This document shows positions 11,791-41,517 of a DNA stretch of 64,000 nucleotides, one piece after another. How positions within the stretch are numbered: position 1 is the first letter of the stretch; every line of letters begins with the position of its first letter. The notes under the pieces were generated by a model that was not told where the DNA came from, did not search any database, and saw nothing but the letters and a program-made list of their open reading frames with translations. Made by a program: the position numbers and the translations under genes. This stretch comes from Candidatus Lokiarchaeum ossiferum (lineage in GTDB: Archaea; Asgardarchaeota; Lokiarchaeia; Sigyniarchaeales; Promethearchaeaceae): positions 3,169,121 through 3,233,120 of the forward strand of contig CP104013.1 in NCBI GenBank assembly GCA_025839675.1, written 5' to 3'.

Positions 11791-11793
11791 ACA

Positions 11794-13901: not shown

Positions 13902-13986
13902 TGCGGGGAGAGGGCTTCGAACCCTCGCGCCTCTACAGGACTGGATCCTAAGTCCAGCATCGTGGACCAGACTTGATTATCCCCGC
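13902..13986 (-). tRNA. tRNA-Leu (anticodon TAG), long variable arm, CCA not encoded
   Basis: The reverse complement reads GCGGGGATAATCAAG...CTGGA-CTTAGGA-TCCAG...GGTTCGAAGCCC...TCTCCCCGCA. Anticodon loop is CTTAGGA. The extended variable arm is typical of class II tRNAs. Confidence 0.85.
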
Positions 13987-14069
13987 AATCATGAAATTAC
14001 AAAAAAACCAAATTTCTAAATAAATGGAGTTTTACAAATAATATAAAAATTCTGATAGGATTCATTTCA

Positions 14070-14551: not shown

Positions 14552-16150
14552 CTACTTTTTACCTGAAGATCGTATGTAATCATCAATACGAATAAATATT
14601 ATTGCTAATTCCGTTGCAAGAGAAAAAATCTGCTTTTTTATTATCATCGGTTCAATAATGCCGTGATCGACTGCATTAATTATTTCTCCTGTATAAGCAT
14701 CATAACCCATATATTGATTTTTGCCGTAATTAGTTTGAGATCTAAGTGTAGTAATAATATCCAAGGGATCTTTTCCAGAATTTTCCACAATTATCTTGGG
14801 AATAATCTCTAAGGAATCGGCAAATTGTTCAATAGCAATTTGTTCTTTTCCTCCAATTTTTTCACCATAAATAAGAATTCGTTTTCGTAACTCAATTTCT
14901 ATTGATCCTGCACCACCAACTATTTTGGGTGTTTCGATTAAACTCTTCAATACAGAAAGACCATTTTTGATTGCACGTTCTGCATCATCAACAATAAGTT
15001 CAGTTCCCCCGCGAATTAAAAGAGTAACCGACTTGGCTTTATTACATCCTTCAATAAAGATCATATTATCCTGCCCGATTTTCTGCTCTGAAATCATCTG
15101 AGCATCCCCTAAATCATCCATGGTGATATTTTTAATTTGTGTAATTATCTTAGCTCCGGATGCACGGGCAATTTTTTTCATATCAGACTGTTTTATCCTT
15201 CGAACCGCAATAATACCACTTTTTGCAAGATAATGTTGAGCCATTTCATCTATTCCTTTTTGACAAAAAACAGCGGTTGCACCAGCATCTGAAATAGAAT
15301 CGACGAGGTCTTTTAGCATAGATTCTTCTTTTTTTAGATATCCATCAATTTCTTCAGGAGAAGTAATCTGAATTTCGGAACTGAAATCGGTTTTAACAAT
15401 CTCTAAAGCACCATCAATCAAGGCAATTTTAGCATTTTTTACGAGTTTAGGCATCATAGGGTTCACAATTTCTTTATCTACGATGATCCCTTCTATCATT
15501 TGGGAATTTATCAATCCTTCTCCTTCTTTTTTCACGATTTGAATATTATCCAAATCAATATAGGATTGATCGCCCCGAGTTTCTCGAATGTGGTCAATAG
15601 CATCAGCAATCATATTTGCAAATTCTATTTTTGAATCTTCCATAGATTTACTATTTAATGCTGTTATAGCTGCTTTTTGGAGGATGTTCTTATCAGATGT
15701 ATTAACTGTAATTGAAATTTGGTCTAAAATATTCTTAGTTTCGTTGATAGCGTGAATGAAACCTTCATATATCAATGTTGGGGAAAGCTCCATTTCGATC
15801 ATTTCTTGAACTCTAGCCATGAGATCACCAATAAATATTACCGCTGAACTGGCTCCATCCCCTGTATTTTTGTGTATGGTTTTAGATAAATCTACAATCA
15901 TTTTGGCCGCTGGATTTTCTACACCCAATTCTTCCAAAATCTTAGCACCATCACCTGTCACAGTGACATCTCCGAGAGTATCGACCAACATTTTGTTTAA
16001 TCCTTTTGGACCAAGAGTAGTCCTAATTGATTCCGCAATGGCTTTAATTGCTTCGATATTTGTAATTAATGCACTTTTTCCCTTAATTTGTTGTGAACCC
16101 TCACGTAATATCATTACTGGATTTCCTGATAAATTTGACATTTGAATCAC
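14552..16150 (-). CDS. ths: Thermosome subunit (group II chaperonin)
   Basis: 532 aa. Motifs include GPKGLNKML, VTVTGDGAKIL and VDDAERAIKNGLSV, with the typical equatorial/apical organisation. Confidence 0.9.
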   Translation of the reverse strand: MIQMSNLSGNPVMILREGSQQIKGKSALITNIEAIKAIAESIRTTLGPKGLNKMLVDTLGDVTVTGDGAKILEELGVENPAAKMIVDLSKTIHKNTGDGASSAVIFIGDLMARVQEMIEMELSPTLIYEGFIHAINETKNILDQISITVNTSDKNILQKAAITALNSKSMEDSKIEFANMIADAIDHIRETRGDQSYIDLDNIQIVKKEGEGLINSQMIEGIIVDKEIVNPMMPKLVKNAKIALIDGALEIVKTDFSSEIQITSPEEIDGYLKKEESMLKDLVDSISDAGATAVFCQKGIDEMAQHYLAKSGIIAVRRIKQSDMKKIARASGAKIITQIKNITMDDLGDAQMISEQKIGQDNMIFIEGCNKAKSVTLLIRGGTELIVDDAERAIKNGLSVLKSLIETPKIVGGAGSIEIELRKRILIYGEKIGGKEQIAIEQFADSLEIIPKIIVENSGKDPLDIITTLRSQTNYGKNQYMGYDAYTGEIINAVDHGIIEPMIIKKQIFSLATELAIIFIRIDDYIRSSGKK

Positions 16151-16207
16151 TTTTTTTTTTAATTAGGAAGTCTAAGTCACTAAAAATTTTAAAATTTTTC
16201 AATAATT

Positions 16208-18892
16208 GTGAAAACAAAAATCGGTTTTTTTATAAATTGTTCTAGAGAGAAGAATAGTGTTCATATTGGAGATTATACAATGAATCTTTTCGTAATATTT
16301 TCTTCTTTCGAAATGATGCTTTCTTATACAAATATAGTAATAGGAATCATTCTTTTGATTAAACAAATTCATGATATAAGAAGAAATGTAATTTCTCGAA
16401 TTCTTACATTTACAAAAACATACTTTCTTTTTATTTTGATAAATTGTTGTTTATCGATTTTTGATTCACTAATTTATCCAGAAAGGACGTTATATTATGT
16501 TTATATTTTGATATTTCTAGGTATTGGAAATATAATCTTTTATTTTAAGTTAAGACCAAAAAATATTCCAAATTTGCTTTTAAAAAAACCTGAATTGAAA
16601 TCTTATCCAAGGGGAAAAGTGAGAATTGGAACAATTTTCCATGAACAAAAAATATTGAAGAAATTTAAACTTAACATTGAAGATATAAAGAGACATATTA
16701 TTATCTATGGTCAAACAGGAACAGGAAAAACATGGTTTTTAAAAAATTTTCTATATCAATTTTCAAAAAATTTTCCAGAAATACCTTTTATGTTATTTGA
16801 ATTTAAGGGAGAATATTCAGATTTATCAAGCACTATTTCGAATGTAGATATTATTCGTCCTGGAGAAAACTTTAAAATTAATTTATTTGATTGTGATATA
16901 TTTCAGAAAGAGATATATGTTGAAATATTGTTTGATAGCTTAAAATCTTGTCAAATAATTGAAGGAAATGCGGATTTTTCCCCCCAAATGGAAAAAGTAT
17001 TAGTCGATGTATTAAAAAAAGTATGTTTCGATTCAAAAAATCAATCATGGAATACATTATTTACTATTATGGACGAATATGCAGTTCAAAATGTACGAAA
17101 CATCCCAATGTTAAATCAAACAATCATAAGTATAAAGAATAGATTACGTCGATATGCCTCAGGCACACTTTCATCTCTTTTCAATTTCAGTGAAGATTCT
17201 GATCATATATCTGATTTATTATCAAAGAATTGCGTTATTGATCTTGGCCATATACTTAAATTGGGAGGATCTAAAGAGGATGTAATTTTTTTTGCAAATC
17301 TAATTCTTAAATGGATTTGGGAATTTAATATGAAAAAAAATCCATCAGATAGCCTGAACCACATCACCATTTTTGAAGATGCTTCTTATATTGCTTCAAG
17401 AAAGCTTTTAGAAACCTCACACTTATCAACTTATTTAGAGGATATTGCACTACTTTTACGAGGTAAAGGAGAAGCGCTTATAACACTAACAACTACTTTG
17501 GATATTAGCAAAAACATCATTTTAAATTCTGGAACGAAATTTTTTTTTAAATTTAATGAAAATCCTGAAGATATTAATTATTTTATTGGATTAAAAAGTC
17601 AAGATCATATTGATATTAATGCCCTTAATATTGGTTTTTGTTTAGCAAAAATCGATTCTATTTCAGAGGTTTTTCTATTAAAAGGAGAAACTCTTAGAAA
17701 TGATAAGAAGAGAATTAAAAGAAAGGAAAAAATAGTGACCCAAAGGAAGAACAATATTTCATGTAAAAAAAATAAAAAAAAAAAAGATTTCTCACAATTG
17801 GATGCAAATAACAAAGTTTTGAAATCTAAATCAAGAATTATAAATGAAGAATCTAATCATGAGGGGTGTGCAAATGAAATGCAAATAAATAAGGATGAAA
17901 CTCACTTTTCACTAACTAAATTGATACAGCAGGCAGAAGAATTGTATTTGATTGAGAATTATAGGCAATCAACAGAAATACTTTCCATTGTACTCCATGA
18001 TCTAAAAAAAAATTCAAAAAATTTCATAAATATAGACCATAATCCCGATATTATTAACGAAATAAATGATATCATTGATAAGAAAATTGAAAAAACATTG
18101 GAAAATGAAGTCCTTAGTTCCAATGAAATTTTAAACGTGTTAAATATAACAAAAAGGATAAATCAGAAATATTTTTTGAATAAAATAGAAGTTTCAAAGC
18201 CTTTGGAACAAAATCATCTCCCCTTATTAAACCAAAACCCCATGTTGAAAAAAAAAGTGGACATAATTCAAACAGAAAAGAAAATTAATAACCAGAGTTC
18301 TTCAGCTCCAGGAATCATGTTGTTTTATTTCAATATGATCACAGGACCAGAAAAATATTATGAGATCAATAAACTTAAACTGCCAGATCATATAGAACAA
18401 AAAATTGCAAAAAGTATGGACACGAATTCAGGAGAATTTTGCTTGGAAATTGAAGGTTACTTTTTTTATATAAATATTTTCAGCATAGAATCAATATGGG
18501 CGCGTGGAAAAGAAGAAATAATTCAATTAGTCATTTTTTATAATTTAACTGAATTTAATAAGAATTTTATGTTATCTCGACTAAAAAAAAAAACTCATTC
18601 TCTAATTAAAGCCCTAAAACAAAGAAAGACATTATTCTATGCATTTTATTTACTGGATCCCACCAAAATGCTTATTAAAGGTGAGGAAATTAAGAAAGAA
18701 AGCATTTTCATTAAGATGGAAGTAAAAAAAATATATAATCATTTCGTGTATCAGAATAATTCGAAACACAAAATTGAAGCCATTTTCAACAAAGAATATA
18801 GATTGGACAACATAGATTTCGAGTATTTTAATTCTATCATAGAAGAATTATTATTAATTGAAAAAAGCAACCCATCCTTCAATTCAAAATAA
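16208..18892 (+). CDS. Membrane-anchored FtsK/HerA-superfamily P-loop ATPase (VirD4/CedB/TraG-like architecture), 894 aa; true start may be the internal Met near MNLFVIF
   Basis: The first ~110 aa contain three hydrophobic helices. Walker A is HIIIYGQTGTGKTWFL and the Walker B-like motif is HITIFEDASY. The C-terminal tail is long and K/N-rich. Confidence 0.55.
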   Translation: MKTKIGFFINCSREKNSVHIGDYTMNLFVIFSSFEMMLSYTNIVIGIILLIKQIHDIRRNVISRILTFTKTYFLFILINCCLSIFDSLIYPERTLYYVYILIFLGIGNIIFYFKLRPKNIPNLLLKKPELKSYPRGKVRIGTIFHEQKILKKFKLNIEDIKRHIIIYGQTGTGKTWFLKNFLYQFSKNFPEIPFMLFEFKGEYSDLSSTISNVDIIRPGENFKINLFDCDIFQKEIYVEILFDSLKSCQIIEGNADFSPQMEKVLVDVLKKVCFDSKNQSWNTLFTIMDEYAVQNVRNIPMLNQTIISIKNRLRRYASGTLSSLFNFSEDSDHISDLLSKNCVIDLGHILKLGGSKEDVIFFANLILKWIWEFNMKKNPSDSLNHITIFEDASYIASRKLLETSHLSTYLEDIALLLRGKGEALITLTTTLDISKNIILNSGTKFFFKFNENPEDINYFIGLKSQDHIDINALNIGFCLAKIDSISEVFLLKGETLRNDKKRIKRKEKIVTQRKNNISCKKNKKKKDFSQLDANNKVLKSKSRIINEESNHEGCANEMQINKDETHFSLTKLIQQAEELYLIENYRQSTEILSIVLHDLKKNSKNFINIDHNPDIINEINDIIDKKIEKTLENEVLSSNEILNVLNITKRINQKYFLNKIEVSKPLEQNHLPLLNQNPMLKKKVDIIQTEKKINNQSSSAPGIMLFYFNMITGPEKYYEINKLKLPDHIEQKIAKSMDTNSGEFCLEIEGYFFYINIFSIESIWARGKEEIIQLVIFYNLTEFNKNFMLSRLKKKTHSLIKALKQRKTLFYAFYLLDPTKMLIKGEEIKKESIFIKMEVKKIYNHFVYQNNSKHKIEAIFNKEYRLDNIDFEYFNSIIEELLLIEKSNPSFNSK

Positions 18893-18921
18893 TTTTAATC
18901 TAAATAATATATATATAACTT

Positions 18922-20136
18922 ATGTTAATTGGAATTGTAGGAAAACCTTCTTCAGGGAAAAGTACCTTCTTAAATGCAGCATGTCTAACCAATGCGAAAA
19001 CTGCGAATTATCCATTCACTACGATAAAACCTAATGTGGGTAAATCCGCTATTCGTGTGAAATGTGTTTGCAAAGAGTTTTCAGTTGATGATAATCCCAA
19101 AAATTCCCAATGCATCAATGGAGAACGTTTTATTCCAATTAAATTATTAGATGTTGCGGGATTGGTTCCAGATGCTCATTTAAATAAAGGAAGAGGAAAT
19201 CAATTTCTATCCGATCTCTCGAGAGCAGATGTATTGATTCATGTAATTGATATATCTGGAAGTTTAAATGCTGAAGGACAAGATGTCAAAAAAGGAAGCC
19301 ACAATCCAATGGATGATGTTTTATTTTTAGAAAAAGAAATCAATTATTGGTTTCGGGAGATCATTACTCGAAAAGATTGGGGAAAATTTGTTCGAAAAAT
19401 CGAGCAAGAAAAATTATCGTTCCTTGAAATGTTATTAGAGAGATTATCAGGAATTTCTATCAAAAAAGAACATATTATCAAAGCTATGCAAGAACTAAAC
19501 TTGGATTTTGAACATTTAACTATGTGGTCCGACGAAGATATCTTGAATTTTGCATCAAAACTACGGCAAGTATCAAAACCAATTTTGATCGTTGCCAACA
19601 AGATAGACACACCATATAGCGCAAAAATTTACGATAATTTAAAAACTCAGTTGAAACAAAGGATAATTCCATGCAGTGCATTGGCAGAATATTGGTTGAG
19701 GCAATTCGAACAACGTAATGTAATTGAATATTTGCCAGGAGACAATTCTTTTAAAATAACTAATCCTGATTTAATAACACCCACTGAGATAAAATCTTTG
19801 GAAGAAATTCAAAAAAAAATCCTTGACAAGTATGAGGGAACGGGAGTTCAGAAAGTTCTTAATTCTGCAGTTTTAGAAGTGCTAGATAATATTGTTGCTT
19901 ATCCTGTTTATGATCTTCATAATTTTTCAGACAAAGACGGAAATGTTTTTCCAGATGCATATATTGTGCAAAACGGAACCAAACTAAAAGAGTTTGTGAA
20001 TGATAAAATCCATTCAGATTTAGCCAAAAATTTTATTTATGGAATAAATGGGCGCACAAAAATGAGATTGGGGGAAAATTATGAATTACAAAATAATGAC
20101 GTCATTAAAATAGTATCCGCAGCAAAATCAAAATGA
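18922..20136 (+). CDS. ychF: Obg-family GTPase, YchF/OLA1-like
   Basis: G1 is GIVGKPSSGKST, followed by ANYPFTTIKPNVG. The GNQFLSDLSRADVLIHVID motif and a C-terminal TGS-like region match YchF architecture. Confidence 0.7.
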   Translation: MLIGIVGKPSSGKSTFLNAACLTNAKTANYPFTTIKPNVGKSAIRVKCVCKEFSVDDNPKNSQCINGERFIPIKLLDVAGLVPDAHLNKGRGNQFLSDLSRADVLIHVIDISGSLNAEGQDVKKGSHNPMDDVLFLEKEINYWFREIITRKDWGKFVRKIEQEKLSFLEMLLERLSGISIKKEHIIKAMQELNLDFEHLTMWSDEDILNFASKLRQVSKPILIVANKIDTPYSAKIYDNLKTQLKQRIIPCSALAEYWLRQFEQRNVIEYLPGDNSFKITNPDLITPTEIKSLEEIQKKILDKYEGTGVQKVLNSAVLEVLDNIVAYPVYDLHNFSDKDGNVFPDAYIVQNGTKLKEFVNDKIHSDLAKNFIYGINGRTKMRLGENYELQNNDVIKIVSAAKSK

Positions 20137-20430: not shown

Positions 20431-20503
20431 TGGACCTAGGGGAATTTGAATCCCCGACCCCCTGAGTGCAAGTCAGGTGCTCTACCAACTGAGCCATAGG
20501 CCC
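20431..20503 (-). tRNA. tRNA-Ala (anticodon TGC), G3:U70 present
   Basis: The reverse complement reads GGGCCTATGGCTCAGTTGGTAGAGCACCTGACTTGCACTCAGG...TTCAAAT...TAGGTCCA. It lies immediately downstream of the 16S on the same strand, in the spacer position. Confidence 0.85.
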
Positions 20504-20588
20504 TATTGAAAATAAAATTAAAAATACAAAAATTATTACAGTTCTCTAAAGAGAAAAGTAGGGTCGTTATGACCCTACTTAATGGTGT

Positions 20589-22082
<1,494 letters not shown>

Positions 22083-30660: not shown

Positions 30661-33600
30661 TTGAAAAAATTTTTGATGAAAAAAAAAATTTTTTTCTACA
30701 TCTTATTACTCACAATATTAATCAAAAATTTTGAAATGGTAGATGCATGGATATTCCCAGCTCCTCCTGCAATTATGACAGATAAGCCATGTTACTTTCC
30801 AGATGAAAATATCAATATCACAGCTGAATGGAATCTTTATTGTGATAATAATTCAATTTTTGAGATAAAAATTTTATTTTTAGAGAACCAGCCAAATAGT
30901 TATAGTTCATTAAATACCATGTTTTCAAGTAGCTTGACAACCATACCAATTCCAACCAATGATTCATCGCTACACGATTTTGAACAAGTTTCTTATTTCA
31001 CAACAGTTCTAAATTCATCAGAATTATTCAATCTTTCATTTGAGAATACAAAAGAAATTTGGGTCACATTAATCTTCTATTTATGGATTGGAGGAGAAAT
31101 AAATGCTGCTTCATTAATAAAAACATTTTGCGAAATTAGTTTACAAAAATATGAACCATCCTTTCAAAATTCATTGTCCAATTATAGCTTCGAGATAGGG
31201 GATAACTATCTATTAAATAATACGATTTTAGCATCTGAAAATAGCAAAAAAATGTATCCTACTAAGGAAGTATTGTGTATTATTACCAATGAAATCACAT
31301 GTTTATCAAAAAATATGAGTTCATTAATCCAAGATGGCCAATTAACGCTTAATATCTCAAAATTTGGACAATTATCGGTTGGAACTTATAATATTACATT
31401 TATTCTAGACTTTACCAAATTCTTTTGTAATTCAAATTTAACATTAATTATGAATATCAAGGCAAAATATGTTGAGATATCTTCCTTAAACAGTACCAAT
31501 ATCCCGATGTCGTATGATATAAAATTTTTCTTTGATTTTCAACTATTAGATCAATGGGGAAAATCGTTTATAATTGAGAATTTCACTTGGTTATTCAATA
31601 GTGATTTAAATTGGAGCGAGTGTGAAATATTAGAAGATTTTTATCGTATTTATTTTGAATTTCCAAAAATCGAAGGTGAATATTATATTAATCTAAGTTT
31701 AGATAATTTCGAATATAACGTCCAATCTTACAGTAAATATTTCCATTTCTATAAAGAGGAAGTTGATTTAAATTTGTACTTAAGAAATATCACTTTAAAT
31801 CAAGAAATATCATTTTTAGTTGAGGAAAATTTGGGTTTTTCCTTGGAAAGCATAGAAAAATCCAATTTAAACTTGGAATTCTTTGATGGGGATATTTGGA
31901 TATCTATCGACTATAATATTATTGAAAAATATCCATCTATTATGAAAATTGTAACTTCATGGTCTATTTTTGAAAATTTTCCTCAGTTTTTACAAAATTC
32001 GTATTTTTATTCCCGAATAACGTTTCTTGGTAATGAAGTACTGCTTTCTGCAACTTCTAATATACTTACGATTAACCTCCCAATAATTAATTTTACTGTC
32101 AACTCAACATCAATCATTCTGGGACAAAAAATTCAGTTTCTTTTTGAGAATTATAGCATTTACCATCCAGAATCATATTTTTGGGATTTTGGGGATGGAA
32201 TAGGATATTCCACAGAAATAAATCCTGTTTATCAATATTTATTCCCTGGAAATTACTCAATTACTTTGACAACATTGAATTTTGAGGGTTATAATAATAC
32301 ATTTAATAGAGTTGGTTATATATTGGTAGATGAGGATAGAATACCTTTAGCAAAATTTGAAATCAGTCAAAATTTAACTATTCAAAATGAAACCATTGAT
32401 TTCATATTTACTGGTGATGAAGGAAATGGACCTTGTACGTATTTATGGGATTTTGGAGATGGTTTTTCTTCAAATGAAAAAAATCCAACGCATAGGTACA
32501 ATACACAGGGCAATTATTCTATTTCCTTAACTATAATTGACTGTAATCACGATTCAAGCCAAATTATTAAAAATGATCTAGTTGGAATATTATTCGACGA
32601 ACTGCCAATTGCAAATTTTTGGTTCAAAAATGAAATTTTAATAATTAACCAAGAAATCCTGTTTTTTTATAATGGGACGATTGGTAATGGAAATGAAACA
32701 TATCTATGGAATTTTGGGGATGGAACATTTTCAATGGAAAAAAATCCAGTTAAAACTTATAATAATACGGGAAGTTATTCAATTAGTGTTGAAGTTACAG
32801 ATTGTGATGGAGATACAGATCTAATTATTCAAAATGAGATAATTAATATTGAAACAGACATATTTCCTATTGCAGATTTTAATAGTTCAAACCAATCATT
32901 TTTGACAAATGAAGAAATCTTCTTTTTTTTTAATGGAACAGAAGGAAATGGTGTGAATTTATTTGAATGGAATATCGGGAATTTAATTTTTCATGAAAGA
33001 AATCCGATAGTCGTTTTCAATGCCTCTGGATCTTATTCAATCAGATTAAGTATCATTGATTCCAACGGAGATAAAGATTCTATACAAAAAGACAACTTTA
33101 TTATTATTTTAGAAGACTTGGTTCCAGAAGTTGATTTTTTTTGTCCAATAAAACAAATAGTTGCAAATGAGGATGTTCAATTTTTTTACAATGGAACAAT
33201 TGGTAATGGAAATGAAACTTATATGTGGAATTTTGGGGATGGAACATTTTCTACGGAAAAAAATCCTGTAAAATGCTATAATAATATTGGAATTTTTTCA
33301 ATTAGGGTTGAAATTACAGATTCTGATGGAGATACAATGTTTTTACAAAAAGATGACTTTATAATTATTTTAGAAGACTTTCTTCCAGTAGCGGATTTCT
33401 ATTGTTTACAAAATAAAATTATAGGTGGAGAAGAAGTTCAATTCTTTTATAATGGGACAATGGGAAATGAAAAAATGACTTACTCTTGGGAATTTGGAGA
33501 TAATACATCCAGTAATGAAGAAAATCCAAAAAAAAGGTATTCAATTCCTGGAAACTACACAATTAAACTTAAAGTGACTGATTTCGATGGGGATATAAAT

Positions 33601-34800
33601 TTCAAACTATTATCAAATTATATTGAAGTTTTACCAGACTATTTTCCAGAAGCAGAATTTAATTATTCACAAAATACAAGTATCGCTGGAGAAAGTATTC
33701 AATTCATGTTTACTGGAAGTTTAGGAAATGGGAATCTTACTTACTATTGGAAATTTGGAGAGCATCTTAGTTCATCCTTATCAAATCCGATTATTTCGTT
33801 TGAATATCCAGGGATTTATTCTGTTTTTTTACAAATCATGGATGAAGATGGAGATATTGGAACATTGACAAAAGAAAACGTGGTGAACATTATTCCTGAT
33901 ATTCATCCTAAATCGAATTTTACTTGTTCACAAAATACAAGTATCGCTGGGGAAAGTATTCAATTCACATTTACTGGAAGCTTAGGTAATGGAAATCTTT
34001 CCTATTATTGGAAATTTGGAGAACATCTTAATTCGTCCTTACCAAATCCGATTGTTTCTTTTGAATATCCAGGGATTTATTCTGTTTTTTTACAAATCAT
34101 GGATGAAGATGGAGATATTGGAACATTGACAAAAGAAAACGTGGTGAACATTATTCCTGATATTCATCCTAAATCGAATTTTACTTGTTCACAAAATACA
34201 AGTATCGCTGGAGAAAGTATTCAATTCACATTTACTGGAAGCTTAGGTAATGGAAATCTTTCCTATTATTGGAAATTTGGAGAACACCTTAATTCGTCCT
34301 TACAAAATCCGATTGTTTCTTTTGAACATCCGGGAGAGTATTCCATATCATTGTTTATTTCTGATATCGATGGAGATATAGATTATTTAACTAAAAAGAA
34401 TTCTATAAATATTTATCCCGATCTAAAACCTATTGCACACTTCTATTTTAATAGTTCATCATTTGTCACTGGGAAGGGCATCCAGTTTTATTTTAATGGA
34501 ACAAATGGTAATGGAAATATAACTTGGACCTGGAATTTTGGGGATGGGAGCATTTCTAAAGAAATTAATCCTATTAAACAATATGAAAAACCAGGAAATT
34601 ATGTTGTTTCTATTATTGTTGTAGATGATGATGGAGACAAAGATATTTTTAGTTTAAATATAGATATCAAAAGAGATAATTGGATTGAAATCTTTCCGTT
34701 TTCGATAATAACGAGCGTTATTGGAACAATTTCAATTCTTACCAGAAAATATTGGAAGAAAAAAATTAAATTGGTTGCTCTAAATTCAATTAAGATTTAA
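30661..34800 (+). CDS. Large surface protein (1379 aa): signal peptide, ~480-aa unique N-terminal region, ~10-11 PKD-like domains, C-terminal TM anchor with KKK tail
   Basis: The N-terminus is MKKFLMKKKIFFYILLLTILI. Repeats of about 90 aa carry the PKD signature (FNGT.GNGN.TY.WNFGDG...NP...Y...G.Y.I.L.V.D.DGD). The C-terminus reads FSIITSVIGTISILTRKYWKKK. Confidence 0.75.
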   Translation: MKKFLMKKKIFFYILLLTILIKNFEMVDAWIFPAPPAIMTDKPCYFPDENINITAEWNLYCDNNSIFEIKILFLENQPNSYSSLNTMFSSSLTTIPIPTNDSSLHDFEQVSYFTTVLNSSELFNLSFENTKEIWVTLIFYLWIGGEINAASLIKTFCEISLQKYEPSFQNSLSNYSFEIGDNYLLNNTILASENSKKMYPTKEVLCIITNEITCLSKNMSSLIQDGQLTLNISKFGQLSVGTYNITFILDFTKFFCNSNLTLIMNIKAKYVEISSLNSTNIPMSYDIKFFFDFQLLDQWGKSFIIENFTWLFNSDLNWSECEILEDFYRIYFEFPKIEGEYYINLSLDNFEYNVQSYSKYFHFYKEEVDLNLYLRNITLNQEISFLVEENLGFSLESIEKSNLNLEFFDGDIWISIDYNIIEKYPSIMKIVTSWSIFENFPQFLQNSYFYSRITFLGNEVLLSATSNILTINLPIINFTVNSTSIILGQKIQFLFENYSIYHPESYFWDFGDGIGYSTEINPVYQYLFPGNYSITLTTLNFEGYNNTFNRVGYILVDEDRIPLAKFEISQNLTIQNETIDFIFTGDEGNGPCTYLWDFGDGFSSNEKNPTHRYNTQGNYSISLTIIDCNHDSSQIIKNDLVGILFDELPIANFWFKNEILIINQEILFFYNGTIGNGNETYLWNFGDGTFSMEKNPVKTYNNTGSYSISVEVTDCDGDTDLIIQNEIINIETDIFPIADFNSSNQSFLTNEEIFFFFNGTEGNGVNLFEWNIGNLIFHERNPIVVFNASGSYSIRLSIIDSNGDKDSIQKDNFIIILEDLVPEVDFFCPIKQIVANEDVQFFYNGTIGNGNETYMWNFGDGTFSTEKNPVKCYNNIGIFSIRVEITDSDGDTMFLQKDDFIIILEDFLPVADFYCLQNKIIGGEEVQFFYNGTMGNEKMTYSWEFGDNTSSNEENPKKRYSIPGNYTIKLKVTDFDGDINFKLLSNYIEVLPDYFPEAEFNYSQNTSIAGESIQFMFTGSLGNGNLTYYWKFGEHLSSSLSNPIISFEYPGIYSVFLQIMDEDGDIGTLTKENVVNIIPDIHPKSNFTCSQNTSIAGESIQFTFTGSLGNGNLSYYWKFGEHLNSSLPNPIVSFEYPGIYSVFLQIMDEDGDIGTLTKENVVNIIPDIHPKSNFTCSQNTSIAGESIQFTFTGSLGNGNLSYYWKFGEHLNSSLQNPIVSFEHPGEYSISLFISDIDGDIDYLTKKNSINIYPDLKPIAHFYFNSSSFVTGKGIQFYFNGTNGNGNITWTWNFGDGSISKEINPIKQYEKPGNYVVSIIVVDDDGDKDIFSLNIDIKRDNWIEIFPFSIITSVIGTISILTRKYWKKKIKLVALNSIKI
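33640..34450. repeat. Three near-identical ~270-bp tandem repeats (each one PKD domain) within the surface-protein gene
   Basis: Blocks beginning near 33640, 33910 and 34180 are almost identical at nucleotide level. The protein blocks FTGSLGNGNL(T/S)YYWKFGEHL...IMDEDGDIGTLTKENVVNIIPDIHPKSNFTCSQNTSIAGESIQF recur verbatim. Confidence 0.8.
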
Positions 34801-35143
34801 TTTAGAAAAAAAGAACGTTTATGGACTTTTTACCCGCTTTTTTGTATCATATAGATTGAGATATCCGACTTTTCGGGAGTCTCTTGCAGTTTCTCGACAA
34901 ACTAAATGCAAATTTTTCCCTTTCTTCAAGGATCTTAGTCGTTTCAATTCAAGGAAAACAAAATCTCAGGAAAATGCACCTTCATCGTTTTGATTACCAA
35001 ATCCGTTTCTATTCTAAGATTCTGATTTTCATCAATTTCTTACCTTGTTCGAGATTAAGAAGCGAAGTTTCTCATTGTTAAGTAACAATGTAAATCTCAA
35101 AATCCTAAACGTAAGTCTAATAATAGATGATGTTTAAAAAATT

Positions 35144-35166
35144 TCGACATTTTAATATAAAAAAAG
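35144..35166 (+). promoter_or_regulatory. BRE/TATA-like promoter (tttaatataaaaaaag) ~20 nt upstream of the pilin ATG, implying a leaderless or near-leaderless transcript
   Basis: An AT-rich TATA-like box sits at the expected distance upstream of 35179. Confidence 0.3.
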
Positions 35167-35178
35167 ATAAAAACAATA

Positions 35179-35379
35179 ATGAAAATTTTGAGAAAAATAA
35201 AAAATAAGATTCATTTACTTCTAAAAGATGAAAAAGGAGGGTCAATGCTCGAATCAGGTTTACTGATTGCATTAAGTTTGATTCTATTTCTTATGTTAAT
35301 AGGAATTGTAGGGAATGTTTATGATTGGATTGAGATTAAATTTTCTGAAGTGCTGAATTTTTTTGACTCTCCAATATGA
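35179..35379 (+). CDS. Flp/Tad-like archaeal pilin with class III (prepilin) signal peptide, 66 aa
   Basis: MKILRKIKNKIHLLLKDEKGG | SMLESGLLIALSLILFLMLIGIV has a charged N-region and Gly-Gly before the predicted cleavage site, then a hydrophobic helix with Glu at +4/+5. It is followed by tandem stops and a T-tract. Confidence 0.55.
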   Translation: MKILRKIKNKIHLLLKDEKGGSMLESGLLIALSLILFLMLIGIVGNVYDWIEIKFSEVLNFFDSPI

Positions 35380-35403
35380 TGATAAATCGAAAAATCATCA
35401 GAC

Positions 35404-35418
35404 ACATGTTATTTTTGT
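35404..35418 (+). terminator. Oligo-T tract (ttattttt) downstream of pilin gene, possible partial terminator
   Basis: A T-run lies immediately after the pilin stop codons and before the Orc1 start. Confidence 0.2.
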
Positions 35419-35448
35419 TGGCTGCCGACAAATTTCATATCAATTACT

Positions 35449-36675
35449 TTGAGCAATTGGGGAACAACTTTGAACAAAAATTACCTAGAACAACAATTTT
35501 ATTGCAAGGATTTATTTATTAATGAAGAATATCTCGATATAAATTATCTTCCAGAAGACATCTTGCACAGAGAACAAGAATTAATAATTTTATCAAAAAT
35601 TTTCATTAAATTAATAGAAAATCCTTTTAAAATAACAAGAAAATTGTTAATTCAAGGGGATGTGGGAATTGGAAAAACAGCGATAGCGCGTACTTTTGGA
35701 ATAATGTTGAAAAGAAGTGCGAAAAAACGAAATATAAAAATTGAAGTTGTACATATTAATTGCAGAAAAGAAAGAACACATTTTAAAATACTTCAACAAA
35801 TTTTATTGACACTATCGTATCCAGTTCCTAAAAGAGGTTTCTCTCCTCAAGAATTAATGACTATACTACAAGAATATCTTGAAAAGAATAAAATATATTT
35901 ATTCTTAGTATTGGATGAAATGAATCATATACAGAGCTCAGATTATGATTTGATATACGCTTTAACTAGATTAAATGATACTACAGGAAAAGATTCTTCG
36001 TTTCTCTCTTTATTATATATTGTTCGGGATATCACCCTTTTAAGAAATTTAGACGAATCAACCATCAGCACATTACAAGGAAATATTCTTTCTCTAAAAA
36101 AATATAATAAAATGCAAATAAATGATATTTTAGAAGAGAGAATTAATAAATCAATTCAAAAAGGAGTATTTCCATCTAAATTGACTATGATAATATCTGA
36201 AAAAATCGAAGATTCAGGAGATATTAGAAAGGGATTAAACATAGTGAGAAATGCAGTTAAAATAGCAGAAATCAAAGATAAAACAATAGTATCTTATGAC
36301 GAAATTCACCAAGCGATCAAAAATCTAATCCCAAGTCTACAGGATGATGCTTTGGGAATATTAAATATGCATCAAACAATTATACTTTTTTCAATTACTA
36401 CATACTTCATAGAAAATAAGGAAAAAAGAATTACACTAAATCAACTTAATCCTTATTATTTGAATACTTGTAAAAAATATGACCAATTGCCCAGAAAAAG
36501 CACTCAAATATGGCAAAATTTACAACAATTACGAAATTTGAATCTCATCAAAATTGTAACTATTTCTAAAAATATGAAAGGAAGGAAATCTTTTTGTTCA
36601 ATTAATGATATACCCCTGAACATTTTAAATGAAGAATTGAATCAAAAACTGAAAAATTTTTACTGTGGTAGGTGA
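35449..36675 (+). CDS. Orc1/Cdc6-family AAA+ protein with C-terminal winged helix (TTG start)
   Basis: N-terminal INYLPEDILHREQELIIL matches the initiator-type motif. Walker A is LLIQGDVGIGKTAIAR and Walker B is YLFLVLDEMNHI. YALTRLND...SLLYIVRD and KGLNIVRNAVKIAE follow, then a wH domain. Confidence 0.8.
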   Translation: MSNWGTTLNKNYLEQQFYCKDLFINEEYLDINYLPEDILHREQELIILSKIFIKLIENPFKITRKLLIQGDVGIGKTAIARTFGIMLKRSAKKRNIKIEVVHINCRKERTHFKILQQILLTLSYPVPKRGFSPQELMTILQEYLEKNKIYLFLVLDEMNHIQSSDYDLIYALTRLNDTTGKDSSFLSLLYIVRDITLLRNLDESTISTLQGNILSLKKYNKMQINDILEERINKSIQKGVFPSKLTMIISEKIEDSGDIRKGLNIVRNAVKIAEIKDKTIVSYDEIHQAIKNLIPSLQDDALGILNMHQTIILFSITTYFIENKEKRITLNQLNPYYLNTCKKYDQLPRKSTQIWQNLQQLRNLNLIKIVTISKNMKGRKSFCSINDIPLNILNEELNQKLKNFYCGR

Positions 36676-36678
36676 AAT

Positions 36679-36984
36679 ATGCTGATTGTAAAAAAAATGG
36701 TAAATACAGGTTTGTTTGAAGAAATTTTTTCCTCGAAAGGAAGAGCGAAGATAGTTAAGATCTTGGCATTAAGAAATGAAATGAATATTTCAAAAATTAT
36801 TTCCTTAGCAGGCACAAGCCATTCAAGTGCTGAATACCATCTGAATTTCTTAAAAACAATAGAATTTGTTAGAGAAAAAAAATTTGGAAGAATTCGGATT
36901 TTTGAATATCAAAATGATAATTTAGACGCTAGAGCTCTAAAAAATTTAATTCTATTTTGGGAACAAAAAAATGTGGAGTTATGA
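36679..36984 (+). CDS. Winged-helix (ArsR/TrmB-like) transcription regulator, 101 aa
   Basis: The motif ISKIISLAGTSHSSAEYHLNFLKTIEFVREKKFGRIRIFEY is an HTH plus wing. It is 3 bp after Orc1 and overlaps the next gene by 14 nt. Confidence 0.5.
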   Translation: MLIVKKMVNTGLFEEIFSSKGRAKIVKILALRNEMNISKIISLAGTSHSSAEYHLNFLKTIEFVREKKFGRIRIFEYQNDNLDARALKNLILFWEQKNVEL

Positions 36985-37441
36985 GAGCGAACAAATTTTA
37001 TTGTTATCATATTTTCTATTATTAGTAATAATTTCCATAGAAGATTGTGTTTTTGGAAAAATATTTAACTTTACAATTATATGGGGAATTCTCCTTCGAA
37101 TTTTCTTTTTTTTTTCTTATAATGAAAAAATCACACCTTCAATTGGAAAAATGTTTCAAAATTTTATTATTGTTATTATTTTTTTCATATTGTGGAATAA
37201 AAACATAATCGGTGGTGGAGATTTAAAGACGATTTTACTTTTCTTATTTTATATCTCTGCACATTCTAACAAACATACGATAATATTCCCATATCAACTA
37301 TTTGATAGAGTTCAATTTTTCATTTCTTTTTTTATGATAATATTTTTCTCAAAATTAATTCAAAAAAAAAAAAAACACTCTCCAATTTTCAAATTGGGGC
37401 CAATTTTTTTAATTTCAATGTCTATTGCAATTTTATTTTAA
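36971..37441 (+). CDS. Prepilin peptidase (A24 family; PibD/FlaK/TadV-like), 156 aa
   Basis: A polytopic membrane protein with Asp in SIEDCVF near the N-terminus and a second Asp in the conserved IIGGGDLK motif. This corresponds to the two catalytic Asp of PibD/FlaK. Confidence 0.6.
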   Translation: MWSYESEQILLLSYFLLLVIISIEDCVFGKIFNFTIIWGILLRIFFFFSYNEKITPSIGKMFQNFIIVIIFFILWNKNIIGGGDLKTILLFLFYISAHSNKHTIIFPYQLFDRVQFFISFFMIIFFSKLIQKKKKHSPIFKLGPIFLISMSIAILF

Positions 37442-37473
37442 TCGTTTTTTTTAAAGAATTTTAGAATGTAAGA

Positions 37474-39549
37474 GTGATGAAAAAATGCAAGAATAATTTA
37501 AATTCTTCCTTAAAGAATGAAATGGATCAAAGAATTTTAAGCCTGAATTGCTCTTCTTTTCCCAGTGACGATAAAAAATTGTGTTTAACTTGCATAGTTG
37601 ATAAGTTACTGGAATTATCTAAAAAATCTTATGATGATATTCAAATAAATTGGAGAGTATTGGATAATTCCGAAACAAAGGTCTTGGTATACTTAAGTAA
37701 CTTTCTAATTGATCTTCGTAAAAGAGATCTTAGTTCAAATTGTAAAATCGCACTTTTACAATGTCAATACAATAGCAAACTAATTAATCCTTTAGAAAAA
37801 ATAACAATTCAATCCATTTTCAGATGTTTAAAAAATGAAAACGTGCCAAATTCAAAAGATTTGCATGAAGAAGGATATAATCTTGACAAAATATGTGAAT
37901 CTTGCATAAAAAAACAATACAAAAAAAACAAATTAATTAATAAAATATATTGCAAATCAAAATTTGCCTCATTACTTGAAAAAAAATATGGATTATTTCA
38001 TCCTTCCTTAGGAGATATAGTGAGAATATTACCTTCATTTTCTCTTATTAGTGTCGAAAATAACCTTAAGTCAAATTCTCACATTTACAGTGAGATTGAA
38101 CAATATAGTTTACACAAAAATATATTTTTAGTTAAAATTTTTAAAATTGAAAATGAAATAGAAAACTTATATCAAGTTACAAATTTGATATCACCCTCAC
38201 TTAGTCAAAAATTAGATTTTTTCAAAAAATTCTTCAAAACGAAGTTATCAAGCCTTAAATTCCAGTATTTCTCGAATTTAGCCGAAAAAATTGATCATAT
38301 TGAGATCCAATTAAAATCTTCATTCAAGAATTTTTTTCCTGAAATTAGAGTAGATGAAATTACAAAATTAAGTCTGATCCTAGCGTTAAAATACTTGAAA
38401 GTTGAAAAATTATTTCCTCTTTTAGTCGACCCGTTTATCGAAGAAATATTTCTTGATTCCGCTGAAGCATTTATTTATTTAAACCATCAAAAATTTGGGA
38501 GATGTATTACCAAATTATGTATAAATGAAATTGAGATAGAAGCTTTAAAAACCCATCTTAGGTTTGAAAGTGAAAAAAGATTGGATGAAAAATCCCCCAG
38601 CTTAATCCATTCTATAAATAATAAATACTTCCACTGTAGATTTTCAATTGATATATTTCCATCACATTGGAAAAATTTTTCATTTGACATTAGAAAAATG
38701 AATAAAAATATTTATTCAATAATCGATCTTATAAGTTTGAACACCTTAAGCGTAAGAATGGCTAGTTTTTTAATTTTTTGTATCATAAATAGAATAAATA
38801 TCACAATTGCGGGTGAAGTTAACTCAGGGAAGACAACATTACTTAATTCTATTGATCTAATGATTCCGAAAAATTTCCGTAAAATATATGTTGAAGAAAC
38901 ATTGGAGAGCTTAGAAATACCAATAAGTCAAAATCACCAATTAAAATATGTAGTTGAGTCCGATTTAGACGGAATAAACAGAGGAAAAGAAAAAGAAATA
39001 TATAAATTGCTCCACCGTTCAGGAGATATAATTATTTTGGGAGAGATTCTTAACAAATCAGAATCTGATGCATTATTTCATTGTTTGAGTGCAGGATTGA
39101 AAGGTATTCAGACAACTCATGCTTCATCAATTCAAGGATTAATTAATCGATGGATAGTTCATTTTAATATTGATAAAAGTTGTTTTAATGATCTTGGAAT
39201 AATTGTTTTGATGAAGAAAATAGGACAACAGAGAAAAATCCTGTCCATTTGTGAAACTATATATAACAGAAGAGAAGATTCGCTACACATAAATGACTTC
39301 TTTAAATATTTCCCTAATTCTAATAAATGGAAACAAATTATTCCATTCACAGATTCAAATCTTTTCAAGAAATTGAATAGTTATTTAAATCTCACAGATT
39401 ATAAATACCAGAATATTATCAATACTATCGAAGATGCTCTATATCAATTAATCCAGAAATCTAAAGAAACGAAAAAATCTAAATTTAACTTAGCACAAGG
39501 AATTTTAAAATCTTTGAATGAAATTGAACCTATGATTGGAGGTAATTAA
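37474..39549 (+). CDS. Type IV pilus/secretion ATPase (PilB/VirB11/FlaI/TadA superfamily) with ~380-aa N-terminal extension
   Basis: Walker A is ITIAGEVNSGKTTLLNS. The Asp box/Walker B is RSGDIIILGEILNKSE. The His box is LKGIQTTHASS. Confidence 0.8.
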   Translation: MMKKCKNNLNSSLKNEMDQRILSLNCSSFPSDDKKLCLTCIVDKLLELSKKSYDDIQINWRVLDNSETKVLVYLSNFLIDLRKRDLSSNCKIALLQCQYNSKLINPLEKITIQSIFRCLKNENVPNSKDLHEEGYNLDKICESCIKKQYKKNKLINKIYCKSKFASLLEKKYGLFHPSLGDIVRILPSFSLISVENNLKSNSHIYSEIEQYSLHKNIFLVKIFKIENEIENLYQVTNLISPSLSQKLDFFKKFFKTKLSSLKFQYFSNLAEKIDHIEIQLKSSFKNFFPEIRVDEITKLSLILALKYLKVEKLFPLLVDPFIEEIFLDSAEAFIYLNHQKFGRCITKLCINEIEIEALKTHLRFESEKRLDEKSPSLIHSINNKYFHCRFSIDIFPSHWKNFSFDIRKMNKNIYSIIDLISLNTLSVRMASFLIFCIINRINITIAGEVNSGKTTLLNSIDLMIPKNFRKIYVEETLESLEIPISQNHQLKYVVESDLDGINRGKEKEIYKLLHRSGDIIILGEILNKSESDALFHCLSAGLKGIQTTHASSIQGLINRWIVHFNIDKSCFNDLGIIVLMKKIGQQRKILSICETIYNRREDSLHINDFFKYFPNSNKWKQIIPFTDSNLFKKLNSYLNLTDYKYQNIINTIEDALYQLIQKSKETKKSKFNLAQGILKSLNEIEPMIGGN

Positions 39550-39976
39550 GATCAATCAAATTTTGGATAAGATGCTATTAATGGTATTTGGTTTAATTTC
39601 CATCCTAGTTTTTGCACCAATATTATTTTTTTTTTTGGAAAATAATTTTTCTACAATATCAGTTGAAAATACAGTAGAATTAGAACAGATTGATTCTGAT
39701 ATATTAAATTTGGCAGAAAATTTTAAAATTTTTCAGGAAGACAATAACGAATCTCAGATATTTTATTTTGAATTCCAAGGAGTGATTACTGTCTTTTACG
39801 AAAATTTGAATAATTTAACTACGTTATATTTGAATTTTTATTACAACGAAACAAAATCTCCGATCTTTAGGCATTTAATTTTCAACAACGAACTAAATAT
39901 TACAATTAATTCATACCAGATTAACCAATATTTCTTCCTTAAAGAAAAAAATGTGATTTCACTAATTTTTTCTTAA
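39536..39976 (+). CDS. Hypothetical protein with N-terminal TM helix (possible pilus accessory/minor pilin-like)
   Basis: MLLMVFGLISILVFAPILFFFL is followed by a soluble domain. It overlaps the ATPase stop. Confidence 0.4.
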   Translation: MEVIKINQILDKMLLMVFGLISILVFAPILFFFLENNFSTISVENTVELEQIDSDILNLAENFKIFQEDNNESQIFYFEFQGVITVFYENLNNLTTLYLNFYYNETKSPIFRHLIFNNELNITINSYQINQYFFLKEKNVISLIFS

Positions 39977-39990
39977 GGAGGTGCTAAATC

Positions 39991-41517
39991 ATGAATTTTT
40001 CGAAAATAATCAATGACACATATTTTCACTTATGTTCCAAACTCCCAAAAAAAAACAATTTTGAAAGCAAGCAAGAAATAGTTTATGAGGATATTATTAG
40101 AGTTGAATATAATTTAACAAAAAGTCAACAGATGCAAGGAGCTTATCTATTATCAATGGGATTTTTTATTGTTTTATGTATAGCACATTATATTTGGCAA
40201 TTTGACATGATTTATTTAATATTTTTGATATGTATCGGTTTTTTAATCTTCACTTACTTGAAAAACTATTTCAAGAATCAAATAAAGGTGAAGGAATATA
40301 GTTTAATAAATCATTTACAATTTTTGGTGGTCCAAATTAAGATATTTTTAAAAAATGTTTCAAAAACTAAAGATAGGGAAATATTAATTTTAGAAATGTT
40401 GACTTACGGTCCAAAATTATCCCCAAATATAGATCAAGTTTATTATTCTCTTAGTTTAGGTAAAAATTCAAAAAAAAGTCTGGAAAAATTAATCTTTTAC
40501 TCTCCTGCTTTTACCAAATTTTTCCAAACGATGATCAAATTCAATTTTGATGAAAAAATTGTATCAAAATTAGATGAATTTAATTCATCTTATGAAAAAA
40601 AAATAGAAATGTTTATACAATCTCTCGAGACAAGATTAAGTCTTTTCTTCTTTTTCTCGATTTTTTATCCAATTGGTGTCTTTTATTTTGCAGCAACATA
40701 CCCAATTTCTTTTAAAACTATGTTAATGCTGGTTTTAATATATTATTTGGCACAAGAAATTATTTTAAAATATGTGCTGGATAATCGAATACATTTGCTA
40801 GGCGATGTATCTAATTTGAAAAAAAAAAAAAAAAATGAATTTGAAACATTTTTAGACTTTTTCTTGATTTTAGGAAGAAATTTAATCAATAGTTCTCCTG
40901 AAATTGCAATATTTGAAGCTTTTAAAAGCATAGGTCCGAAATCTCAAGAAATTTTAAAATTATCTAATTTTAATTTCTCTCTTGAATTTTTATCTCTTGA
41001 ACATTTTTTAAATAAAATGTCTCAAACCTTGCAGAACAGTGAAATAAGTCAATTTTTAAATTTCTTGTTAAAACTTTTTAAAAATGATTCTTCACAAGGA
41101 TATAATTTTTTAATTGATACTTTAATTCAAATTAATTCTCATAAAGTTCAAGTAAACAAGCAAGAAGTTGCTTTCAAAAATGCCTATTCTAAGTCAAATT
41201 TATTCAAAATGCTTCTTGCTTTAATACTTGGCATATTAACTCCATTTATCATCAAATTTCAAGCAACGATAGTTGAATTTCAAAAAGTAGTAAACAGCTC
41301 ACAAGATTTCTATTTTGAATACTCGACTTTAGCAATCAATCAATCGATATCTCTTGTATTAAGAGTAATTTCATTACTATTTCTTATTATAAATATTACT
41401 TCTTTTAATCGTTTTTATATTAAACGATCTTTCAAAAAAATAGATTTTCTCGTAATTATTTTATACATTATTTTTAATCTAATTTCGAATATTTTGCTCC
41501 AAAATACAATCCTTTGA
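39991..41517 (+). CDS. Polytopic membrane protein, probable TadC/FlaJ/PilC-like platform protein
   Basis: 508 aa with multiple TM helices separated by two cytoplasmic helical regions, positioned immediately after the ATPase. The assignment rests on architecture and context. Confidence 0.45.
   Translation: MNFSKIINDTYFHLCSKLPKKNNFESKQEIVYEDIIRVEYNLTKSQQMQGAYLLSMGFFIVLCIAHYIWQFDMIYLIFLICIGFLIFTYLKNYFKNQIKVKEYSLINHLQFLVVQIKIFLKNVSKTKDREILILEMLTYGPKLSPNIDQVYYSLSLGKNSKKSLEKLIFYSPAFTKFFQTMIKFNFDEKIVSKLDEFNSSYEKKIEMFIQSLETRLSLFFFFSIFYPIGVFYFAATYPISFKTMLMLVLIYYLAQEIILKYVLDNRIHLLGDVSNLKKKKKNEFETFLDFFLILGRNLINSSPEIAIFEAFKSIGPKSQEILKLSNFNFSLEFLSLEHFLNKMSQTLQNSEISQFLNFLLKLFKNDSSQGYNFLIDTLIQINSHKVQVNKQEVAFKNAYSKSNLFKMLLALILGILTPFIIKFQATIVEFQKVVNSSQDFYFEYSTLAINQSISLVLRVISLLFLIINITSFNRFYIKRSFKKIDFLVIILYIIFNLISNILLQNTIL

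Follow-up and report, generated by a model that had tools for sequence, protein, structure and literature searches.

An Orc1/Cdc6 paralog and an ArsR-type winged-helix protein built into a type IV filament locus of Asgard archaea

The genome of Candidatus Lokiarchaeum ossiferum carries, within the 64,000-nucleotide (nt) stretch of contig CP104013.1 (assembly GCA_025839675.1) analysed here (the window), a cluster of seven open reading frames (ORFs) on the plus strand in which genes for an Orc1/Cdc6 protein and a small winged helix-turn-helix (wHTH) protein stand among genes for a type IV filament. This cluster is best explained as an Asgard-specific Epd/Tad-like type IV filament locus with an Orc1 and an ArsR-type wHTH protein built in. 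Both parts are of known kinds; their conserved physical joining in Asgard archaea is new. The function that we favour, in which the Orc1 paralog and the wHTH protein are dedicated ATP-switched DNA-binding regulators within this locus, has in our judgement about an even chance of being right. The seven ORFs, all of which had been listed in an earlier note on this DNA and are confirmed here, are as follows (aa, amino acids; TM, transmembrane):

35179-35379, plus strand: pilin, 66 aa, NEF87_002710 (Flp_Fap E-value: 0.05, and conserved orthologs)
35449-36675, plus strand: Orc1, NEF87_002711 (TIGR02928; NCBI start at 35470, 401 aa)
36679-36984, plus strand: ArsR-family wHTH protein, 101 aa, NEF87_002712 (HTH_5, NF033788)
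36971-37441, plus strand: A24 peptidase, 156 aa, NEF87_002713 (Peptidase_A24, IED and GGGD motifs)
37474-39549, plus strand: type IV filament ATPase, 691 aa (T2SSE, FlaI model)
39536-39976, plus strand: small membrane protein, 146 aa (one TM helix; no Pfam match)
39991-41517, plus strand: polytopic membrane protein, 508 aa, NEF87_002716 (T2SSF in some orthologs, hhalign)

The ORFs are spaced at +69, +3, -14, +32, -14 and +14 nt. Locus tags NEF87_002710, NEF87_002712, NEF87_002713 and NEF87_002716 were obtained by exact look-up, and the Orc1 gene is NEF87_002711 because NEF87_002710 and NEF87_002712 flank it. The Orc1 ORF matches a Cdc6/Cdc18 protein from Candidatus Lokiarchaeum ossiferum with 100% identity, and the deposited name of UYP46426.1 (NEF87_002711) is "ORC1-type DNA replication protein 2".

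The second ORF had been read in the earlier note as a full-length Orc1/Cdc6 protein, and the profile search proposed there bears this out. It matches TIGR02928 at 219.6 bits, above the curated cut-off of 181.3 (orthologs: 218-275 bits), and has both the lid and the winged helix (wH) (Pfam profiles Cdc6_lid, 33.3 bits, and Cdc6_C, 44.6 bits). The Walker A (GDVGIGKT), Walker B (LVLDE) and sensor-2 (SGDIR) motifs and a GRK wing do not vary among 12 orthologs. Matches in the PDB include 1FNN, 2QBY_A and 2V1U. Another L. ossiferum homolog, NEF87_002496, has been reported to share 42.5% identity with the Orc1 initiator of Haloferax volcanii (PMC12890983, 2026). NEF87_002496 and NEF87_002711 are distinct genes, approximately 215 genes apart, and L. 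ossiferum therefore has at least two Orc1 proteins. Judged by the locus tags and this one paper, NEF87_002711 is a paralog and is not the cited closest match to the proven initiator.

The protein encoded directly downstream is a wHTH protein, as predicted. It matches HTH_5 at 23.6 bits (cut-off: 22; 25.0 for an ortholog) and NF033788 with an E-value of 1e-7. In the PDB it matches SmtB and CzrA weakly, and no ArsR metal-site motif is apparent on reading the sequence.

The association of this pair with filament genes is conserved. One genome per species was scanned with search patterns specific to this Orc1 family, giving 58 Asgard loci, one per genome; counts of the ATPase and platform genes are limited to the 37 loci whose downstream flank measures 8 kb or more. 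In this neighbourhood comparison, which had been suggested as a test in the earlier note, the Orc1-wHTH pair stays with the pilus genes in all adequately flanked loci. The same seven-gene order follows the gene for a PKD-repeat surface protein in Promethearchaeum syntrophicum MK-D1 (counterpart genes at approximately 164.5-171 kb of CP042905.2), in Harpocratesius and on a 200-kb metagenome contig (L007). Orc1 orthologs with approximately 40% identity still precede the wHTH gene (with a 4-nt overlap) and the A24 peptidase gene, and the wHTH gene lies directly 3' of Orc1 in 57/57 loci. The ATPase and platform genes are present in 37/37 loci, approximately 2-4 kb (median 2.5 kb) from Orc1, in convergent orientation in 34 and co-directional in 3. 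The module of ATPase, small protein and platform adjoins Orc1 even where it is inverted (loci L008 and L009) or has shifted upstream within different outer surroundings (locus L010). At least four gene orders keep the Orc1-wHTH-pilus set together, and the Orc1, wHTH and A24 frames overlap or sit 3 nt apart in every lineage. A reciprocal scan of metagenomes, started from an ATPase alignment, recovered Orc1 and the wHTH gene in 18 loci, which are all those with enough contig past a complete ATPase/small protein/platform module. In a more distant lineage (L112), Orc1 and the wHTH gene are 6.6 kb away.

Some of these loci contain additional genes. In L008 and L009, the gap of approximately 2 kb between the A24 and platform genes encodes an acidic protein of approximately 125 aa ending in DPW and, on the opposite strand, a 162-aa V4R-domain-like protein (V4R E-value: 9e-4). 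In Harpocratesius repetitus (L005), a group II intron with a reverse-transcriptase ORF (17245-18867; RF00029, 54.8 bits) lies between the platform and L23 genes, and the platform gene is missing from the source annotation.

An Epd/Tad-like locus on a 1.68-Mb contig with gene content that does not seem Asgard-like (L116) provides an outgroup. No Orc1 gene lies within 10 kb of it, and the Orc1-pilus association therefore looks like a derived feature that is stable in this Asgard group. The L116 locus (8460-14369) encodes a 505-aa ATPase lacking an N-terminal extension, a platform split between two genes (236 and 196 aa), a 63-aa Flp-like pilin (KG↓VQILEE, where ↓ marks the cleavage site), three small pilin-like proteins and, next to the pilin, a HerA/FtsK-like ATPase (DUF87, TrwB_AAD_bind). 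Given this last protein, the L116 filament clade may handle DNA.

The filament genes of the cluster are largely those described in the earlier note. Its first ORF had been called an Flp-like pilin with a class III signal peptide, and the G↓xxxxE motif and hydrophobic helix are indeed kept in orthologs. The pilin has a basic leader, a predicted cleavage site (KDEKG↓GSMLES) with Glu at +5, a single TM segment (residues 27-45) and no globular domain; the processing site and the residues that follow read KDEKG↓GSMLESGLLIALSLILFL. The Pfam Flp_Fap match is weak (E-value: 0.05), and the UniRef label is "Flagellin Flp1-like domain" protein. Orthologs of 62-71 aa share the pattern G↓(G/S)S(M/T/I)(L/I)E(S/Y)GL(L/I)I and, after it, a single TM helix, and the L010 ortholog (ERG↓GSIVEYGLI) has a textbook Flp motif. 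The A24 peptidase, with the IED and GGGD motifs, is likewise borne out: its score here is marginal (26.1 against a cut-off of 26.5), the L009 ortholog passes with 36.7, and both catalytic Asp motifs (IED.. and GGGD) are conserved across orthologs. It is shortened (156 aa, against 208-230 aa in orthologs) and has four hydrophobic segments.

The predicted PilB/FlaI/TadA-type ATPase with a long N-terminal extension matches T2SSE at 46.8 bits and the FlaI model with an E-value of 5.7e-28. Its core (residues ~270-620) is FlaI/GspE-like, and among solved structures it comes closest to afGspE (2OAP) and FlaI (4II7), followed by the Tad ATPase CpaF. The N-terminal extension of approximately 270 aa is family-specific and contains conserved CxxC pairs in the ortholog alignment. 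An 825-aa paralog of this ATPase (838 bits to the family hidden Markov model) was seen at 9164-11638 of a low-G+C contig (L105) with small-GTPase-like neighbours; within 10 kb of it there is no small protein, platform, Orc1 or wHTH gene. The small membrane protein, also as described before, has 146 aa and an N-terminal TM helix (residues 14-32), followed by a beta-rich part. It has no match in Pfam, and its gene lies invariably between those of the ATPase and the platform. Orthologs are found in 50 loci, with a conserved N-terminus (M(T/S)NLxEKxLLxGFG).

The signal for the TadC/FlaJ-like platform protein is weaker than the earlier note had claimed. The 508-aa protein has no Pfam match of its own, and the evidence comes from its orthologs, of which 4/39 match T2SSF (best E-value: 0.002), and from hhalign, in which residues 133-243 and 370-492 match, colinearly, the platform pair that L116 encodes as separate genes (probabilities 77% and 76%; E-values of approximately 2e-5). 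The second of these L116 genes itself matches T2SSF (E-value: 1e-4). An AlphaFold2 model, built on a shallow alignment of 4-5 sequences, is all-helical and of low confidence (pLDDT 62.6). It gave no fold match below an E-value of 0.3 with Foldseek against the PDB; a profile search against the PDB returned no matches, and hhalign detected no internal repeat. The alignments make it probable, with moderate confidence, that the 508-aa protein is a fused TadB/TadC-like (T2SSF) platform.

The DNA upstream of Orc1 bears on both its regulation and the question of a replication origin. The features of this region are as follows:

30661-34800, plus strand: PKD surface protein, 1379 aa (PKD_4, 346.8 bits in 9 stretches)
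34823-35105, minus strand: RNase P RNA gene, archaeal type (RF00373, 77.3 bits)
35140-35159, plus strand: putative pilin promoter (sequence reading)
35425-35436, plus strand: CCGACAAATTTC box, candidate operator upstream of Orc1 (conservation in four genera)

The 378 bp between the PKD and pilin genes are, in four genera, more conserved as DNA than the neighbouring proteins. This stretch holds the RNase P RNA gene, which had been overlooked in the earlier note; it fills the gap on the minus strand and is divergent to the pilin promoter. The match to RF00373 covers the full model (1-288; E-value: 1.5e-21). Its score lies below the gathering score of 84, and a default Rfam scan therefore misses the gene. 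A copy in another locus (L024; 1531-1842, minus strand), also upstream of Orc1 and on the opposite strand, scores 88.5 bits, above the gathering score. The RNase P RNA gene reinforces the earlier claim that the upstream space is too short for an origin. Non-coding DNA preceding Orc1 amounts to 73 bp (RNase P RNA gene to pilin gene) and 69 bp (pilin gene to Orc1). Direct and inverted repeat searches found no clusters of repeats resembling origin recognition boxes (ORBs) in 34700-35500 or in the whole window, and no AT-rich unwinding stretch is obvious by eye between the two conserved upstream boxes of relatives. An ORB-flanked origin adjoining Orc1 was thus rejected: there are no repeat clusters, and the upstream DNA consists of the pilin ORF and the RNase P RNA gene. 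GC skew in the window tracks gene strand and is uninformative.

The putative pilin promoter, read from the sequence, consists of AATTTCGACA followed by a TATA-like TTTTAATATA approximately 24 nt before the ATG, and the pilin mRNA would be leaderless. Within it, AAA..TTTCG is invariant in four genera. The CCGACAAATTTC box between the pilin gene and Orc1 is also invariant across four genera. Its core, [CT]CGACA, was found on the plus strand of the 330 nt preceding Orc1 in 33/58 loci, where approximately 0.04 would be expected per region. In loci of the convergent type, the box lies approximately 100 nt upstream of a conserved promoter block (AAAAAAyTAnTACTCTGTAyTTTATTATAA). Reading of the alignment indicates that this distal CCGACA box and a proximal TACTCTGTA box, approximately 100 nt apart, share an ACAGA/TCTGT dyad. 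The hexamer AATTTC, which fits the ANTTTC element that Orc1-2/Cdc6-2 proteins bind in promoters of pilus and DNA-damage genes, occurs both in the pilin promoter (35140-35145) and in the Orc1 box (35431-35436); for a hexamer in DNA of 27% G+C, this is not evidence. A candidate terminator hairpin with a T-tract after the pilin gene was rejected, as it folds no better than shuffled sequences (z=0.34).

The proposed model is as follows. Pilin would be made from its own strong promoter, and Orc1, the wHTH gene and the A24 gene (with the ATPase gene and those that follow) would be transcribed from the promoter bearing the conserved CCGACA box. Orc1 would act as an ATP-switched DNA binder and, together with the wHTH protein, would probably regulate transcription of the filament genes and of its own operon, possibly reaching further genes. 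Filament biogenesis might in this way be coupled to DNA or cell-cycle status, as by Orc1-2 for the Ups pili of Sulfolobus. The canonical initiator role would be left to the other Orc1, NEF87_002496. The co-transcription, the DNA targets and any regulatory effect of Orc1 and the wHTH protein are inferred.

The claim of the earlier note that Orc1 has been recruited to the pilus system stands in part: the protein is a paralog, origin features are lacking and the pairing is conserved, but the sequence is initiator-like and a housekeeping block is nearly as well conserved. Several observations weigh against regulation of the filament genes by a dedicated Orc1. The conserved block consists, in order, of S17e, p27-like Zn-ribbon, surface protein, Orc1, wHTH, A24, platform, small protein, ATPase, L3 and L4, and its housekeeping members are kept almost as strictly as the filament genes (S17e in 45/47 loci, L3 in 35/36), so that part of the conserved linkage could stem from housekeeping surroundings that are frozen in place. 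Most relatives lack a pilin gene at the locus. Upstream of the ATPase operon, the CCGACA box shows no enrichment (4/44), and thus no shared operator joins the Orc1 and ATPase operons. By profile scores, and with no phylogeny, Orc1 is nearer to the initiator class than to ApeORC2: the ortholog profile gives 228 bits to P. aerophilum Cdc6 (1FNN), 187.5 to SsoOrc1-1, 156 to ApeORC1, 138 to ApeORC2 and 81 to Orc1-3. With ApeORC2 below 1FNN, SsoOrc1-1 and ApeORC1, closeness to the non-initiator Orc1-2/Cdc6-2 cluster was not found, and membership in that cluster is unsupported because the profile favours Orc1-1-class proteins. The recognition-helix and wing residues of the wH look initiator-like by eye in the alignment with 1FNN. 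Several orthologs reach the cut-off of the NCBIfam "ORC1-type DNA replication protein" equivalog (NF001623); the Lokiarchaeaceae copies fall below it (250-259 against 311). Lastly, pili are unmentioned in the text of the papers on both cultured species.

Alternatively, Orc1 could be a true initiator, or a general cell-cycle Orc1, in a conserved housekeeping block (S17e, RNase P RNA, the operon of ribosomal proteins L3/L4/L23, and ABCE1), with the pilus genes as mere neighbours and the origin elsewhere or at a minimal site near the upstream boxes. We regard this as possible but doubtful. In addition to the initiator-class similarity, the equivalog matches and the conserved block, it is in keeping with the intact Walker A/B, sensor-2 and wH elements, with the dyad shared by the distal and proximal boxes, and with the core-gene-like recovery of one copy per genome in 58/58 Asgard genomes (by family-specific patterns). 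However, repeated ORB-like elements are lacking in the little non-coding DNA upstream, and NEF87_002496 is the one cited as the closer match to a proven initiator. The pilus linkage also outlives several rearrangements and, in L010, the loss of housekeeping neighbours: that locus retains a pilin-A24-X-Orc1-wHTH arrangement and the ATPase module and has lost both S17e and L3. Together with the overlapping or 3-nt-spaced Orc1-wHTH-A24 frames of all lineages and the gene orders, of which there are at least four, this argues for a specific Orc1-pilus tie.

Two further explanations give the pair a more direct part in the filament. It is unlikely that the Orc1 AAA+ binder and the wHTH protein work directly with the filament ATPase and platform in a vertically inherited core machine of Lokiarchaeia and related Asgard archaea. 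Its roles might include DNA import or exchange, or a coupling of envelope and filament assembly to replication or cell-cycle state, and it would be a pre-eukaryotic case of recruitment of an ORC-family protein to a non-replicative, membrane-linked function. We consider it quite improbable that Orc1 and the wHTH protein are working parts of a DNA-handling filament (for uptake, exchange or surface display) and bind or load DNA at the ATPase and platform. Type IV filaments for DNA uptake are established in bacteria, and Sulfolobus has Ups/Ced; both offer parallels to such a filament. The strict co-inheritance of the pair and the ATPase/platform module, also at loci that have no pilin gene nearby, the hint of DNA handling from the HerA/FtsK-like ATPase beside the L116 pilin and the Cys-rich ATPase extension, which could be an interaction module, point the same way. 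However, the locus gave no homolog of a DNA channel or nuclease, features for membrane targeting are missing from Orc1, and the explanation depends wholly on gene neighbourhood. Orc1/Cdc6-like initiators are common on archaeal plasmids and viruses, and weak TniB, VirB11 and TrbB profile matches could be taken to mean that the cluster is the remnant of an integrated element with its own Orc1-type initiator and a secretion- or conjugation-like ATPase module. This is highly improbable. The VirB11 and TrbB matches reflect the generic T2SSE core, and Orc1 identity declines stepwise across the recovered genomes. The candidate was rejected on composition (G+C of 0.24-0.27, close to that of neighbouring non-ribosomal genes), on a chromosomal position constant in dozens of species and on the lack of integration signatures, as no integrase, att-like repeats or tRNA target was seen.

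The regulatory reading would, if true, have several implications. In eukaryotes, the Orc1/Cdc6 family gave rise to ORC1-5 and Cdc6, and no known group is more closely related to eukaryotes than Asgard archaea. A conserved second Orc1 hard-wired into a filament operon would mean that this family had diversified in function among Asgard archaea as well. The one known precedent, control of the Ups pili by Sulfolobus Orc1-2, would then be joined by a case from another archaeal superphylum in which the link is a physical one within an operon. The locus is apparently the principal type IV filament locus of Lokiarchaeia, and had been little described before. Orc1/Cdc6 in archaeal type IV pilus loci is unmentioned both in Makarova et al. 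2016 (PMC4858521) and in a 2026 filament preprint (10.64898/2026.04.22.720090), which reports only "core components" in Asgard genomes. No description of an Orc1-pilus gene link was found in the Asgard replication paper, the MK-D1 and L. ossiferum papers, reviews or keyword searches. Testable targets are available in two cultured species, as NEF87_002710-002716 in L. ossiferum and the CP042905.2 genes in MK-D1.

The PKD protein encoded upstream of the cluster has a signal peptide, nine PKD repeats and a C-terminal TM anchor (TM segments 10-28 and 1342-1360). Orthologs are found in the corresponding position in MK-D1, Harpocratesius and L007. Its suggested role as a pilus adhesin is speculation, and the oppositely oriented RNase P RNA gene separates it from the operon. 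The N-terminal non-PKD part (30661-31500) contains a repeated motif, YFPDE.I.I.A.W.L.Y...F.I.I, which is common to C-anchored non-PKD surface proteins of L008 (6439-7815) and L009 (6672-7739). Because surface proteins with this motif occupy the same position in distant loci, conservation of position extends to the upstream surface-protein gene.

Ribosomal protein genes are also present in the window, as is a complete archaeal 16S rRNA gene (20588-22082, minus strand), which is followed by tRNA-Ala (20431-20503, minus strand). No large subunit (LSU) rRNA match to Rfam was found anywhere in the window, where protein-sized ORFs occupy 14552-20136, and the rRNA genes therefore appear to be unlinked. 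A 90-nt element is present in two copies (10217-10306 and 11629-11718; 76% identical, 1412 nt apart) that flank a 151-aa ORF (10599-11054) in an unusually gene-poor stretch; the repeat pair and the ORF may represent a small unit that is mobile or was duplicated. A repeat with a 24-nt period (7215-7418) at the 5' end of an 1818-aa ORF (1971-7427, minus strand) would encode an acidic, Glu/Asp/Lys-rich repeat region.

The nearest functional parallel is Orc1-2 of Sulfolobus. In S. islandicus, this non-initiator, a DNA-damage regulator, binds and activates the upsA and upsE pilus promoters (PMC6061795), and it switches on both the UV-inducible type IV pili and the Ced DNA importer (PMC6061795; PMC9738581). 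Like the Asgard Orc1, it is a full-length paralog (AAA+, initiator-specific motif, wH) that coexists with an initiator Orc1. Sulfolobus Orc1-2 is an autoregulated, ATP-switched transcription factor of type IV pilus promoters, whereas the Asgard counterpart is a candidate regulator. The Sulfolobus orc1-2 gene lies outside the pilus operon, whereas the Asgard gene is embedded in it with those of an ArsR-type wHTH protein and a prepilin peptidase. In sequence, the Asgard protein resembles Orc1-1-class proteins more than it does ApeORC2.

Canonical Orc1-1/Cdc6-1 proteins (P. aerophilum Cdc6, 1FNN; S. solfataricus Orc1-1, 2QBY_A; A. pernix ORC1, 2V1U) have the same architecture and catalytic motifs and are the best sequence matches of the Asgard Orc1. 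In contrast to these initiators, it has no adjoining ORB-flanked AT-rich origin and is encoded by the second gene of a pilus operon. The filament genes themselves resemble those of the Epd pili of Methanococcus and bacterial Tad (Flp) pili ("system 1" archaeal type IV filaments), with which they share a short Flp pilin with no globular domain and a G↓xxxxE(Y) motif, a dedicated A24 peptidase, a T2SSE ATPase and, probably, a platform of the TadB/TadC type. The Asgard locus differs in that the platform is apparently fused (508 aa), the ATPase has a Cys-rich extension of approximately 270 aa, the peptidase is shortened in Lokiarchaeaceae and the pilin gene is missing from the locus in most relatives. 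It also has Orc1 and the wHTH protein built in. The nearest outgroup locus, L116, has the classic split platform pair and an Flp-like pilin.

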